Source: Escherichia phage S143_2
Direction: 5' to 3' (one strand)
DNA length: 64,000 bases
Sequence record: MZ189261.1
The notes below the pieces were generated by a model, which was given only the letters and a program-made list of their open reading frames with translations, searched no databases and was not told the DNA's origin. Below are positions 51,224-56,582 of the stretch, one piece after another; positions within the stretch are counted from its first letter, which is position 1; each line of letters opens with the position of its first letter. A program made the position numbers and the translations under genes.

Positions 51224-51228
51224 ATTTA

Positions 51229-51252
51229 GGGAGACTTCGGTCTCCCATTTTT
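51229..51252 (+). terminator. Terminator after gene 35
   Basis: GGGAGAC-UUCG-GUCUCCC followed by ATTTTT. Confidence 0.65.
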
Positions 51253-51253
51253 G

Positions 51254-51261
51254 TATAAATA
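51254..51261 (+). promoter_or_regulatory. Late promoter TATAAATA (gene 36)
   Basis: Exact motif 25 nt upstream of gene 36 ATG. Confidence 0.55.
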
Positions 51262-51285
51262 TGGTATACATATAAGGAGACAACT

Positions 51286-51956: not shown

Positions 51957-54900
51957 ATGGCTACATTAAAACAGATACAATTTAAAAGAAGCAAAGTAGC
52001 AGGAGTTAATCCTACTGCAGCACAATTAGCCGAAGGCGAATTAGCGATAAACTTAAAAGATCGAACTCTTTTTACTAAAGATGACCTCGGTAATATTATT
52101 AGCCTAGGCTTTGCTAAGGGCGGGGATATTAACGGTAATGTAACTCAAAATGGAGATTATTTACAGAACGGTACATATAATCTCAATGGAAACCAGTTTG
52201 TTTATGCAGGAAAATATATTGAATTTTTACCTAAAACTGCAGGCAATGGTGCTTGGGCTAACCAACATCTGAATAAAGCTCCTATCTTTACAGATTTGAG
52301 TTCAACTACTTCTGTTTCAGAATATCATCCGCTGATTAAACAACGCTATAAAGATGGAACTTTTTCTGTTGGTACGTTAGTAAACGAAGGAAGTTTTAAA
52401 ATTCATTTTATGAATGAATCTGGTGATTCGAAATATTGGACGTTTCGCCGTGACGGTGGATTTACTGTTGATGGTGGAGGTTTAGCAGTATCAGGAGGTA
52501 GTATAACTACATCTGGAAATATTGCAGCTCTCGGAAATATTACTTCGCCTCAGATTAATACTAAAAATATTATTTTAGACACAAAAGCATTCGGACAATA
52601 TGATTCACAGTCATTAGTTCAATATGTTTATCCTGGAACAGGTGAAGAAAATGGTATAAACTATCTTCGTAAAGTTCGAGCTAAATCAGGCGGAACTATT
52701 TACCATGAAATTGCTTCTGCGCAGACTGGTAAGAATGATGAAATTTCTTGGTGGACCGGAAATACACTTACCACTAAATTAATGGGTCTTCGTAATGATG
52801 GCGCAATGGTATTACGTCGTTCACTTGCTATTGGCACAATTACCACTGATGAAAATACTAACAACTATGGCTCTCCTACTCCAATGGGAGAAAGATATAT
52901 TGCTTTAGGTGATGCCGCCACTGGTTTAAAATACATTAAGCAGGGTGTTTATGATTTAGTAGGTAATTGGAATTCTGTTGCTTCTATTACTCCTGACAGT
53001 TTCCGTAGTACTCGTAAAGCATTATTTGGACGCTCAGAAGACCAAGGCGGAACCTGGTCAATGCCTGGCACTAATGCCGCTTTCTTGTCTGTTCAAACAC
53101 AAGCTGATAATAACAATGCTGGAGACGGCCAGACACATATTGGTTATAACTCCGGTGGAAAAATGTCGCACTATTTCCGTGGTACAGGTCAGATGAATAT
53201 CAATACCCAACAAGGTATGGAAATTAACCCGGGTATTTTGAAATTGGTAACTGGCTCTAATAATGTACAGTTTTATGCTGACGGCACTATTTCTTCTATT
53301 CAATCTATTAAATTGGATAATGAGATATTTTTAAATAACTCTAATAATATTGCAGGCCTTAAATTTGGCGCCCCTAGCAAAGTTGATGGAACAAGAGCTA
53401 TCCAATGGAACGGTGGTACTCGCGAAGGACAGAATAAAAACTATGTGATTATTAAAGCATGGGGTAACTCATTTAATGCCGCTGGTGATAGATCTCGCGA
53501 AACGGTTTTCCAAGTATCAGATAGACAAGGATATTATTTTTATGCTCATCGTAAAGCTCCAACCGGCGACGAAACTATTGGACGTATTGAAGCTCAGTTT
53601 GCTGGAGAACTTAATGCTAAAAGTATTAATGCCATCGAAAATTTTAAAGTTAATGGGTCAAGCACTTTAGTCGGTAATGTTACCGTGTCTAATGGTTTGT
53701 TTGTCCAAGGTGGTTCTTCTATTACCGGCCAAGTTAAAATCGGCGAAACTGGCGACGCATTAAGAATTTGGAATGCCGAATATGGCGCTATTTTCCGTCG
53801 TTCAGAAGATAAGCTTTATATTATTCCAACTGCGCAAAATGCTGGTGAATCAGGTGATATTTCTAATTTACGTCCGTTCTATATTACATTAAGTAACGGT
53901 AAAGTTGTCATGGGTCATGATGTAGATATCGGTGGCGGTAGATTTAAAGTAGAAACTAGTGGAACAACATCAGGGCAAGCTATCACAATTAACGCTAATA
54001 ACGCCGCGCTTATTATTAACTCGGCTTCATCGACCAACGCTGTTTATATTCAGGGTAAAAAAGCTAATACGGTTAAATGGTACGTTGGTAATGGGAGTGG
54101 TAGTTCAGATGAACTTAACTTATATAATAATGCATTAGGTCATGGGGTTGCATTTAGAACCGACGATGTTCTTTTTTCAAAACCATTAAAAGTTGGTAAT
54201 GCTCAATTCGGTACTGACGGTAATATCACTGGTGGTTCTGGTAATTTTGCTAACTTGAATACCACAATAAATAACCTTAAGATAGATATTGTGTCGAGTT
54301 ATCCAATTGGTGCTCCGATTCCTTGGCCTACTGATACACCTCCTGAAGGTTATGCCATCATGGAAGGCCAGACGTTTGATACTGACTTGTATCCTAAGTT
54401 AGCTGCGGTGTATCCTTCCGGCGCTCTGCCTGATATGCGTGGTCAAACTATCAAGGGTAAACCATCTGGGCGTGATGTATTAAGTACAGAAGCAGACGGT
54501 GTTAAGTCACATAGCCATAGTGCAAGTGCGTCAAGCACGGATTTAGGTACTAAGACCACTTCTAGTTTTGATTACGGTAGCAAAACGACTTCAAGCTTTG
54601 ATTATGGTACTAAAACCAGTAATACTACTGGTAACCATAACCATACAGTGAGTGGTAATACTAGTGCCGCTGGTAACCACCGGCACTCACAAACTGGCCC
54701 AAGGGGTCCTAATAACCAACCAACAGGAATATATCCTAATGGAGCTACTGCAATTAGTGGATCCCAGGTTCTTTCTTTTGCCACAAGCAACAAAATCGTG
54801 CCTGGTATAGGCCAATATATTGCAAAGTCATCGACAGAAGGTAACCATACCCACTCTTGGTCAGGAACTACTAGCACCACAGGTAACCATGCCCACACTG

Positions 54901-55058
54901 TCGGTATTGGTGCACATACACATACTGTAGGCATAGGTGCTCATACTCACACGGTAGCTATTGGTTCCCATGGTCATACAATAACCGTAAATGCCACAGG
55001 AAATACAGAAAACACAGTTAAAAACGTTGCTTTTAACTATATCGTTCGTTTAGCATAA
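51957..55058 (+). CDS. 37: Long tail fibre distal subunit gp37 (receptor-binding tip, T4 type)
   Basis: 1033 aa (T4 gp37 1026 aa); C-terminal His-rich HxH repeats and conserved terminal sequence ...[17 protein letters not shown]. Confidence 0.9.
54546..54620 (+). repeat. In-frame tandem 30-bp repeat in gp37 tip region ([11 protein letters not shown] x 2.5)
   Basis: Units at 54546..54575 and 54576..54605 plus partial third; encode [10 protein letters not shown] / [10 protein letters not shown] / GTKTSNTTG. Confidence 0.7.
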
Positions 55059-55091
55059 GGAGAAGGGACTTCGGTCCCTTTTTATAATATG
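55057..55091 (+). promoter_or_regulatory. Gene 38 translation initiation region: SD AAGGAG separated from AUG by a CUUCGG hairpin
   Basis: AAGGAG at 55057..55062 overlaps gene 37 stop; hairpin GGGAC-UUCG-GUCCC at 55065..55078; ATG at 55089; folding would shorten effective SD-AUG spacing. Confidence 0.5.
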
Positions 55092-55640
55092 AAACTCTAT
55101 CACTATTATTTTGACACTAAAGAATTTTACAAAGAAGAAAATTATAAACCATTAAAAGGCGTAGGATTTCCGGCTCATTCGACACCAAAAAAACCTTTAG
55201 ACCCTAAAGAAGGCTATGCTGTTGTATTTGATGAACGCGAACAAGAATGGGTATATGTTGAAGACCATCGTGGAAAAACAGTATGGACTTATGATAAGCA
55301 AAAAATTGTTATTGACACTCCAGGTGCTCTTCAAAATGTTACTACAGAAGAACCTGGTGAATTTGACATTTGGACCGACGACGGGTGGAAGGAAGATGAA
55401 GCGTATAAACGCGTAGTTCAACGTGATAGGAAAATTCATGAACTCTATAAATTATTCAGTGTTTTAAGTTCTCTTATTGGCGCAGAGGTTGCTAATAGAG
55501 AAGAAAAACGAAAATTTAAAGAGCTCAAAAAATTCTTTGCCCTTTTAGAAAAACATGAACATCTTGGCGGTGAATTCCCTAAATTCCCTGACCTTGAAAA
55601 CAAATCTATTGTCAAAGCGATTATAAATATCTTTAAGTAA
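55089..55640 (+). CDS. 38: Tail fibre assembly chaperone gp38 (T4 type)
   Basis: 183 aa (T4 gp38 183 aa); N-terminus MKLYHYYFDTKEFYKEENYKP matches T4 gp38 as remembered. Confidence 0.8.
   Translation: MKLYHYYFDTKEFYKEENYKPLKGVGFPAHSTPKKPLDPKEGYAVVFDEREQEWVYVEDHRGKTVWTYDKQKIVIDTPGALQNVTTEEPGEFDIWTDDGWKEDEAYKRVVQRDRKIHELYKLFSVLSSLIGAEVANREEKRKFKELKKFFALLEKHEHLGGEFPKFPDLENKSIVKAIINIFK
55622..55629 (+). promoter_or_regulatory. Late promoter TATAAATA inside 3' end of gene 38 (holin t)
   Basis: Exact motif 21 nt upstream of t ATG. Confidence 0.55.
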
Positions 55641-55649
55641 GGAGGTATT

Positions 55650-56309
55650 ATGGCAACACCAAAAGTATCATTTTCACTTAGTGATATTCTATTTGGGTTG
55701 CTAGATCGTATTTTCAAAGATAACGCTACTGGAAAGGTTTTAATGTCCCGAGTAGCGGTAATTATTCTTTTGTTCCTAATGGCACTAATATGGTACAAAG
55801 GAAGTATTTTGCTGGATTATTATGTAAGAGCTAAGTATGATACTTATACTGAAATAATCCAAAAAGAACGAGCTTTACGTTTTGAATCTGCGGCTCTAGA
55901 ACAACTGCAAATAGTTCATATCTCATCTGGTGCAGATTTTAGTGCTGTGTATTCTTTCAGACCTAAAAACTTAAATTATTTCGTCGACCTTATAGCTTAC
56001 GAAGGCAAACTACCTAGCACAATTTCTGAAAAGTCCCTTGGCGGATTCCCTGTGGATAAAACGGCCAATGAATATATAATTCATTTAAGTGGCCGTCATT
56101 TCTCATCTAAATCAGAATTTGCATTTTTGCCTACAAAATCTAAGACTGCCGAACTTTCTTATATGTATAGTTGTCCATACTTTAATTTGGATAACATCTA
56201 TGCTGGGACTGTGACGATGTATTGGTATAAGGGGAGTAATATACTTGAGGAGGATCGCTTAGCTGCTATATGCAACCAAGCGGTCCGAATACTAGGAAGG
56301 GCTAAATAA
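55650..56309 (+). CDS. t: Holin T
   Basis: 219 aa; single N-terminal TM segment and large periplasmic domain; close match to T4 T as remembered; late promoter at 55622..55629. Confidence 0.9.
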   Translation: MATPKVSFSLSDILFGLLDRIFKDNATGKVLMSRVAVIILLFLMALIWYKGSILLDYYVRAKYDTYTEIIQKERALRFESAALEQLQIVHISSGADFSAVYSFRPKNLNYFVDLIAYEGKLPSTISEKSLGGFPVDKTANEYIIHLSGRHFSSKSEFAFLPTKSKTAELSYMYSCPYFNLDNIYAGTVTMYWYKGSNILEEDRLAAICNQAVRILGRAK

Positions 56310-56582
56310 TTAGTTGTTAGAATACATCGCTAAATGACGATAAATATTTTCAAAACCTTCATTGAATTCACTAATCAGTGTTTTCTTTTCTTCGGCAGTT
56401 AAATTTGTAATTAGTTTTCTGAACGAATTCTGATTTAGCTGCCGACCATCTTTTTTAATTCCAATCTCATTCAAGAATCCGATGAAACTTGCTCGGTCTT
56501 CAACAATATCTTCCCTAGAGAATTTAATCAAAATAGAAGCAATAGTAATAATTTCACGTACGATTTCAATATCTTTATTCAT
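56310..56582 (-). CDS. asiA: Anti-sigma70 factor AsiA
   Basis: 90 aa (T4 AsiA 90 aa); N-terminus MNKDIEIVREIITIASILIKFSREDIVE matches T4 AsiA as remembered. Confidence 0.9.
   Translation of the reverse strand: MNKDIEIVREIITIASILIKFSREDIVEDRASFIGFLNEIGIKKDGRQLNQNSFRKLITNLTAEEKKTLISEFNEGFENIYRHLAMYSNN

Follow-up and report, generated by a model that had tools for sequence, protein, structure and literature searches.

The best-described counterpart of the protein considered here is gp37 of phage T4. Its tip is divided in the literature into an ascending stem (residues 882–931), a head (932–959) and a descending stem (960–1009), with residues 1010–1026 belonging to domain D10 (PMC9603124); every chain extends outward as far as the head and then returns (PMC9603124; PMC6957217). 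Variation in the length of this needle is already recognised qualitatively, and a cryo-electron microscopy paper of 2025 suggests that the number of His-x-His (HxH) motifs scales with needle length (PMC12609058). Here we describe the gp37 tip of Escherichia phage S143_2, encoded in a stretch of 64,000 nucleotides from sequence record MZ189261.1 (the whole of this stretch is called the window, and positions are counted from its first letter). Gene 37, the gene for the distal long-tail-fibre subunit, occupies 51957..55058 on the plus strand (1033 aa and a stop codon). The region at its 3′ end had been singled out in an earlier note for an in-frame tandem repeat lying beside a series of HxH motifs. 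The tip is very probably of the T4 type, with a needle longer than that of T4 by one matched pair of units: one more decapeptide on the strand that ascends from the collar and one more HxH nonapeptide on the strand that descends to it. Among 238 distinct complete tips the numbers of the two kinds of unit keep step in all but one.

Architecture of the gp37 tip

The assignment of the 1033-aa open reading frame (ORF) is based on the frame itself, on its Pfam domains, gp37_trimer (aa 684–759) and Collar (aa 785–832), and on homology to the T4 crystal structure. In a phmmer search against PDB the C-terminal 279 aa of gp37 matched 2XGF (2xgf_A, E = 6.6e-87; query residues 74–352 against chain residues 2–242). 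For comparison, the T4 tip sequence was taken from the 2XGF chain and from T4 GT7 genome DNA; the 252-aa tip encoded in the window is 58% identical to it. Against 2XGF there are large gaps in the ascending strand (10 residues), in the descending strand (nine residues) and in the head, and nothing else large.

All parts of the tip lie on the plus strand and follow one another as in T4, where an ascending decapeptide, the head and the descending HxH nonapeptides likewise succeed the collar. The collar ('knob', D10) domain (54309..54452, aa 785–832; Pfam PF07484 Collar, E = 1.6e-11) aligns with the collar of 2XGF and stands directly N-terminal to the needle. The first HxH motif, H852-S-H854 within SHSHS (54510..54518), aligns with T4 H883/H885 and would by homology be the collar-proximal iron site. 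An array of ascending decapeptides (54546..54605) follows, with two full units (aa 864–873 and 874–883) where T4 has one. A degenerate third unit, the cap (aa 884–896, 54606..54644), ends in the second HxH motif, H894/H896. The third motif, H908-R-H910 (54678..54686), is equivalent to T4 H929/H931 and by homology would be the last iron site of the ascending strand. Gap arithmetic between the flanking motifs places the putative head, the receptor-binding domain, at aa 911–963 (54687..54845). The fourth motif, H964-T-H966 (54846..54854), is the equivalent of T4 H966/H968 and the predicted first iron site of the descending strand, and it is followed by the descending array of HxH nonapeptides (aa 974–1009, 54876..54983), four units as against three in T4. 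The C-terminal segment (54984..55055), whose T4 equivalent is residues 1010–1026, would return into the collar; it is nearly identical to the T4 tail, GNTENTVKN(I/V)AFNYIVRLA.

Both arrays are tandem repeats at the DNA level. Tandem Repeats Finder (TRF) detected a 30-bp period in 2.4 copies at 54546–54616 (score 86), close to the 2.5 copies of the earlier note and in the same place. It encodes G(T/S)KTTSSFDY units, two of them complete, and then the degenerate GTKTSNTTG... The earlier note had given T4 a single such unit, and T4 indeed has one full decapeptide followed by the same partial unit, both in the 2XGF chain and in T4 GT7 DNA. TRF also detected a 27-bp period in 2.4 copies, again in frame (54894–54957), which encodes GIGAHTHTV twice and then AIGSHGHTI; T4 has GIGAHTHTV once. 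The link between the two repeats was absent from the earlier note.

The histidines of the protein are concentrated in the tip. Residues 1–850 of gp37 have nine His and no HxH motif, and the last 183 residues have 16 His, every one of them within eight HxH motifs. This clustering is far beyond chance: when the last 183 residues were shuffled 20,000 times, eight motifs never arose (mean 1.3, maximum 6). The earlier note had listed seven of the motifs, all of which were found; SHSHS, the eighth, lies 10 codons upstream of the interval 54546–55058 that it described. The coordinates of that interval are correct: the 30-bp array begins at position 54546, and the stop codon of gp37 ends at position 55058. 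All seven HxH motifs of T4 have aligned counterparts in the window, and the one extra motif is on the descending strand. The alignment with T4 that the earlier note had named as its own check thus gives different unit numbers together with His motifs in register, and the likeness it had seen to the iron-coordinating needle of T4 holds: the tip is homologous to 2XGF. In sum, the window exceeds T4 by one ascending decapeptide and one descending HxH nonapeptide, with eight HxH motifs versus seven.

By the published numbering the decapeptide of T4 falls in a His-free ascending stretch, residues 886–914, and GIGAHTHTV falls in the descending stem. The collar-proximal HxH motifs of the T4 descending stem (980/982, 989/991 and 998/1000) face residues 886–914 when residues are counted from the collar, a register of sequence and not of coordinates. 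The two insertions of the window, 10 residues on the way up and nine on the way back, would therefore belong to a single part of the needle but to its two opposite strands, because the published T4 boundaries and the sequence register place them there.

A Pfam search with PF03335 (Phage_fiber) gave no match in the gp37 of the window at E ≤ 0.01. Many homologous prophage tips carry precomputed annotation with this family, and the miss probably reflects a weak model of short repeats that is uninformative about the fold.

By homology to the T4 crystal structure the region most probably encodes the 'needle plus head' (D11) of a receptor-binding gp37 tip of the T4 type, and it may be pictured as follows. 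Three chains would leave the collar and ascend as a His-poor strand of decapeptides, form a small head that touches the host receptor, and return as a descending strand of h-G-x-H-x-H-x-h nonapeptides, where h is a hydrophobic residue. The paired His of the three chains would coordinate iron, octahedrally, on the threefold axis of the fibre. Such a needle would be modular, each ascending decapeptide being matched by one descending HxH nonapeptide; that of the window would have two ascending and four descending units and, with eight HxH motifs against the seven of T4, would add an eighth iron site to the collar-proximal series, giving eight irons per trimer instead of seven. The lengthening would amount to 9–10 residues of extended chain, an estimated ∼3 nm at ∼3 Å per residue.

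Matched unit numbers in homologous tips

Homologous tips were collected from IMG/VR contigs, from a large protein collection (mostly Stf proteins of E. coli lambdoid prophages), from annotated phage genomes (lambda and T-even phages of four genera) and from an exhaustive search of 50%-identity cluster representatives. The large protein collection gave few full-length T-even gp37 proteins, and T-even tips were picked individually from a phage collection. For each tip we recorded the distance between the first and the second HxH motif, which equals 22 + 10n for n decapeptides, and how many 9-residue spacings follow one another where the descending strand ends.

The two numbers rise together. In 142 distinct tips from IMG/VR loci and prophage proteins, the pairs (first gap, trailing 9-residue gaps) were (32,2) in 37 tips, (42,3) in 91 and (52,4) in 10; longer needles had (62,5) in two tips and (72,6) in one, and a single tip was exceptional with (42,2). 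The independent set of 50%-identity representatives followed the same counting rule and added a case with no ascending unit (22,1). It contained no true exceptions: those that appeared to be so were truncated proteins, proteins with single-residue insertions or deletions, or proteins in which an HxH motif had been gained or lost without a change of total length. When the sets are combined, the number of descending spacings equals the number of ascending units plus one in 237 of the 238 distinct complete tips, over a range of zero to five ascending units. The two-unit state of the window is found in 120 of these tips and the T4-like one-unit state in 96, and the needle length of the window occurs in lambda Stf and in tips of Mosigvirus, Tequatrovirus and Gaprivervirus. 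The state is no peculiarity of phage S143_2, and the extra unit, which the earlier note took for a free-standing change beside the tip, is one half of a matched pair, 10 residues ascending and nine descending, that lengthens the needle.

When needles that have between one and five ascending units are compared block by block, the collar end, the cap and the C-terminal tail are shared and only the number of paired units differs. T4, lambda Stf and all needle lengths examined have the cap, GTKxTNxxGxHxH; the tail has the same length and a nearly identical sequence in every tip examined.

Shared ancestry alone was considered as the source of the coupling and rejected. Every needle length is seen with several head lengths, and needles of one or two units are each seen with about twenty. 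By parsimony, a rough neighbour-joining tree of the conserved flanks requires ∼40 changes in each count and one change in their difference, where the figure of ∼40 is only indicative, the tree being short and taking no account of recombination and the tips being related and recombining.

In the long needles with three to five ascending units (P0101, L014 and L038) we also observed an alternation. Ascending units alternate between ...FDY and ...(T/P)DL, and descending units between AIGAH... and ALGTH... or VMGAH... The alternation suggests growth by duplication of a two-rung block, or else a structural period of two rungs.

Several points weigh against the reading of the tip as a T4 needle with one more matched pair, the roughness of the tree among them. 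We infer the strand pairing of the extra units from the sequence register and the T4 literature, and the occupation of the eighth site by iron is a prediction. An AlphaFold2 monomer model of the 252-aa tip, made with an alignment of 72 sequences, was unusable (mean predicted local distance difference test score 54, predicted template modelling score 0.22); a poor monomer model is expected, because the chain comes from an interwoven trimer. Each rung has 10 residues on the way up and nine on the way down, which means that the strands are not both simple in-register beta strands; a longer path of the outer, His-free strand would explain the difference, but this is conjecture. Finally, one tip of the 238 breaks the rule. 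It is encoded on a metagenome contig (L004, IMG/VR UViG 3300030021_000020, locus 1501–2226) and has two ascending decapeptides with the T4 number of descending units, including one internal GIGAHTHTV. This tip may be a tolerated mismatch, possibly an evolutionary intermediate, or it may be the product of a collapsed repeat or a misassembly.

A more far-reaching version of the modular needle can be offered tentatively, although we consider it rather doubtful. The needle of T4- and lambda-type fibre tips may be a quantised ruler, with a rung composed of one outer 10-residue unit, one inner 9-residue HxH unit and one iron, and with zero to five rungs added beyond a fixed core, the length being perhaps under selection. 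If this were true, a change of length would call for a pair of coordinated duplications or deletions, or else for replacement of the entire needle, since ∼330 bp separate the coding sequences of the two halves of a rung. Length might then be tuned to the depth of lipopolysaccharide (LPS) or capsule that the head crosses on the way to OmpC or the LPS core, and needles could be engineered by adding or removing matched pairs.

Head domain and probable exchange of head cassettes

The region between the third and the fourth HxH motif differs from T4 in both length and sequence. The start-to-start spacing of these motifs is 56 residues in the window and 37 in T4; the head region is thus ∼19 residues longer than that of T4, has no clear sequence similarity to it and is aligned with it by HMMER only with gaps. 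The head allele of the window was found in ∼30 phage records at 74–95% identity (with a 62-residue query), all of them phages of E. coli or Shigella. Many T-even records (matches H27–H40) have ∼95% DNA identity on either side of the head but do not align across it (88% coverage in two pieces), and their whole tips are 75–80% identical in protein. These mosaic matches are consistent with exchange of head cassettes between conserved stems.

Such exchange is the basis of the strongest alternative to the structural reading, namely that the repeats serve mainly as DNA-level recombination sites for head-cassette swaps and that unit number is a neutral by-product. We regard this as possible but hold it in some doubt. 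The mosaic pattern of the matches speaks in its favour, as does the fact that heads of 26–79 residues (measured from the cap to the first descending unit) occur with both one- and two-unit needles, and the lambdoid origin of the end of T4 gene 37 and of gene 38 is established (PMC3157838). Yet unit numbers that were neutral would not yield matched counts in 237 of 238 tips, and the preservation of the unit peptides through synonymous change points to selection on protein and not on DNA identity. Moreover, a role of the repeats in recombination is compatible with the structural explanation and does not have to replace it.

As to the receptor, the residues of T4 gp37 that contact it map to the head, the glycines and histidines of the stem being structural (PMC6957217), and natural T4-like gp37 proteins differ mainly in the head (PMC10844046). 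The head is the likely receptor-binding element, because T4 contacts map there and natural differences between gp37 proteins concentrate there. The earlier note had proposed that repeat expansion alters fibre geometry or receptor specificity. Of this proposal the first part is plausible, in the form of a longer needle; specificity is more probably set by the head domain than by the extra unit. Two mosigviruses with a T4-like gp37 and a gp38 chaperone, AV117 and AV118, use OmpC (PMC10844046), and all 17 Straboviridae specific for OmpC in a screen of 2026 have gp37 tips with D10 and D11 and variable 'tip' subdomains (bioRxiv 10.64898/2026.04.02.716166). Judging from other T-even phages of the same architecture, the receptor of S143_2 is most likely OmpC and/or the LPS core.

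Age of the repeats

Copies within both arrays have diverged in DNA while their peptides have been kept. The two complete decapeptide copies of the window differ at 7 of 30 bases (77% identity), with five synonymous codon changes and one non-synonymous; between the two copies of GIGAHTHTV there are 6 differences in 27 bases (78% identity), all of them synonymous. Both unit peptides are under purifying selection, and neither array looks recently expanded. The word 'expansion' in the earlier note, if meant as a fresh event, does not fit copies that differ to this extent by changes that are nearly all synonymous.

Comparison with relatives points to considerable age. The first nonapeptide copy of the window is 96% identical to the first copy in phage 348Ecol098PP (L002) and in a further locus, L088; the second copy resembles the second copies of the relatives and the single copy of T4. 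Since the nonapeptide copies have position-specific counterparts in relatives, the duplication predates the divergence of these phages. Nine T-even tips examined (T4 and vB_Eco_F26 not being counted), the nearest relative included, all have the unit number of the window. The signature of slippage, that is, near-identical copies whose number varies among close relatives, was not found. Two of the relatives, 348Ecol098PP and an IMG/VR locus (2706795401_000001, L003), have a pair of 30-bp units with 100% DNA identity; among the 27-bp copies we saw no pair as similar as this. This suggests that the decapeptide array undergoes occasional homogenisation or re-duplication in some lineages.

These data bear on a second alternative, in which slippage or unequal crossing-over has recently expanded the decapeptide next to the tip, and the added unit changes the host range or receptor specificity of the phage. 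In its favour, the units follow one another in tandem and in frame, and the identical units of the two relatives show that homogenisation or fresh duplication does happen in the array. Duplications within T4 gene 37 are also reported to expand host range (Tetart et al. 1996, J Mol Biol 258:726). Still, we think recent expansion improbable. The units of the window have reached 77% identity in DNA with five of six changed codons synonymous, the two-unit architecture is shared with lambda Stf and occurs in 120 of 238 distinct tips, and a compensating unit stands ∼330 bp downstream in 237 of the 238; in addition, the receptor contacts of T4 are in the head (932–959) and not in the stem (PMC6957217).

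A third proposal, that the HxH iron is bait for siderophore receptors ('Ferrojan/Trojan horse') and the eighth motif more cargo and not structure, has been discussed for HxH-bearing fibres (PMC11705849) but is very improbable here: in T4 the irons lie buried along the axis of the trimer and are described as critical to both folding and structure (PMC6957217), phages with the architecture of the window use OmpC or LPS and not siderophore receptors, and the strict pairing of HxH units with a His-free strand fits a structural role.

Gene 38 and the g37–g38 hairpin

Gene 38 (55089..55640, plus strand) encodes a tail-fibre assembly chaperone of T4 type, 183 aa long, identified by homology to T4 gp38, which has the same length (68% identity over 179 aa, E = 6e-92). 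In T4 the chaperones of the gp37 tip are gp38 and gp57A. Similarity to lambda Tfa is lower (32% identity, E = 8e-19), and the sole Pfam match is a weak one, below the curated cutoff, to Caudo_TAP (Caudovirales tail-fibre assembly protein). A gp38 adhesin of the T2/T6 type, ∼260 aa long with glycine-rich motifs and hypervariable segments, was not found in this position: the downstream gene has 183 aa and is a chaperone homologue over its whole length. The architecture is that described in the earlier note, a gp37 adhesin with a separate gp38 chaperone, and gp38 acts in folding and does not form part of the virion.

The interval from the gp37 stop codon to the ATG of gp38 contains a predicted RNA hairpin with a UUCG loop on the plus strand (inner stem 55060..55083, within 55054–55091; −15.7 kcal/mol, z = −4.45). 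T4 has at the same place GGGGC-TTCG-GCCCC where the window has GGGAC-TTCG-GTCCC, a compensatory change from G:C to A:T. A GGAG sequence lies 27 nt upstream of the gp38 ATG, just before and partly within the stem of the hairpin. Gene 38 of T4 is a textbook example of how a hairpin can move a remote Shine-Dalgarno sequence into the neighbourhood of its start codon. In related records the g37–g38 hairpin is annotated as a terminator; a consensus terminator scan of 54400–56400 flagged nothing, despite the strength of this hairpin.

Genomic context

Upstream of gene 37 are ORFs of 1291, 375 and 220 aa, and downstream are ORFs of 183 and 219 aa. Pfam identifies the 220-aa product as gp36 and the 219-aa product as T holin, and ∼22 kb around the locus is 96–97% identical to T-even phages (HX01, ST0 and phi25-307). 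Given the Pfam calls and this identity, the locus is the g34-g35-g36-g37-g38-t block of a T-even phage. The nearest relative of the tip, phage 348Ecol098PP, belongs to the genus Mosigvirus.

Another UUCG hairpin, GGGAGAC-TTCG-GTCTCCC with a T-run, is located just 3′ of the gp35 stop (51228–51261). It is followed by TATAAATA, ∼25 nt 5′ of the gp36 ATG, which we take to be the T4 late-promoter consensus. An 11-bp 'repeat' reported by TRF at 51253–51273 overlaps this motif.

A minus-strand ORF at 54602–54934 (110 aa) was considered as a gene and rejected, as the conserved gp37 tip encloses it entirely and its translation is rich in Pro, Val, Trp and Leu. Judged by position and composition only, it is most likely an accidental antisense frame opposite the HxH-coding repeats.

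Implications and comparison with known systems

The tip of S143_2 is a routine allele of a well-studied adhesin, and its host-range information would be mainly in a head cassette carried by ∼30 sequenced phages. The only modestly interesting product of the follow-up is the matched-pair rule. Annotators and fibre engineers who compare such proteins with T4 should be prepared for needles of varied length and look at both strands when counting units. The rule is a design constraint for chimeric or length-altered gp37 and Stf tips as well as a check for misassembled fibre genes, and it predicts one Fe per HxH motif per trimer, eight in the present case.

Outside the T-even phages the closest described system is the lambda side fibre, Stf (its C-terminal part being orf-314). 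It is in the same needle class as the window, with two decapeptides and four descending units, as are many Stf tips of E. coli prophages. Over the 252-aa tip lambda Stf is 62.8% identical to the window, a higher value than that of T4, and its HxH gaps (42, 14, 48, 14, 9, 9, 9) differ from those of the window (42, 14, 56, 14, 9, 9, 9) at the head. Lambda Stf has another head allele and is a siphovirus side fibre, not a T-even distal half-fibre; its downstream chaperone, Tfa, is like gp38 but much more diverged. The closest entries of the protein collection (P0001–P0120), among the matches listed, are mostly short or partial fibres of lambdoid prophages from E. coli, Shigella and E. fergusonii. 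This predominance of lambdoid prophages fits the published derivation of the T4-type end of gene 37 and of gene 38 from a lambda-like phage (PMC3157838).

Among T-even phages the best match to the 252-residue tip is that of 348Ecol098PP (94.8% identity). Needle length and gp38 type are the same and there are only point differences, although the two 30-bp units, identical in DNA in 348Ecol098PP, are 77% identical in the window. Phages C6, mar005P1, slur03/14, HY126 and SSE1 share the head allele of the window (74–95% identity over the 62-residue query) and have 92–95% DNA identity to it across the tip and gp38 in one piece.

The laboratory host-range mutants of T4 described by Tetart et al. reportedly carry fresh duplications of a segment bounded by His boxes, selected for growth on Yersinia. 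By this account the mutants and the window have in common in-frame tandem duplications in the His-motif region of the gp37 C-terminus; the repeats of the window differ in being old, in forming a matched pair on two strands of the stem and in being widespread in nature. In the T2/T6/S16 system, a gp38 adhesin caps a cleaved gp37 and is encoded at the same locus position, by the gene right after gene 37. This system is not present in the window, where gp38 is a chaperone of the T4 type and gp37 carries its own adhesin tip.

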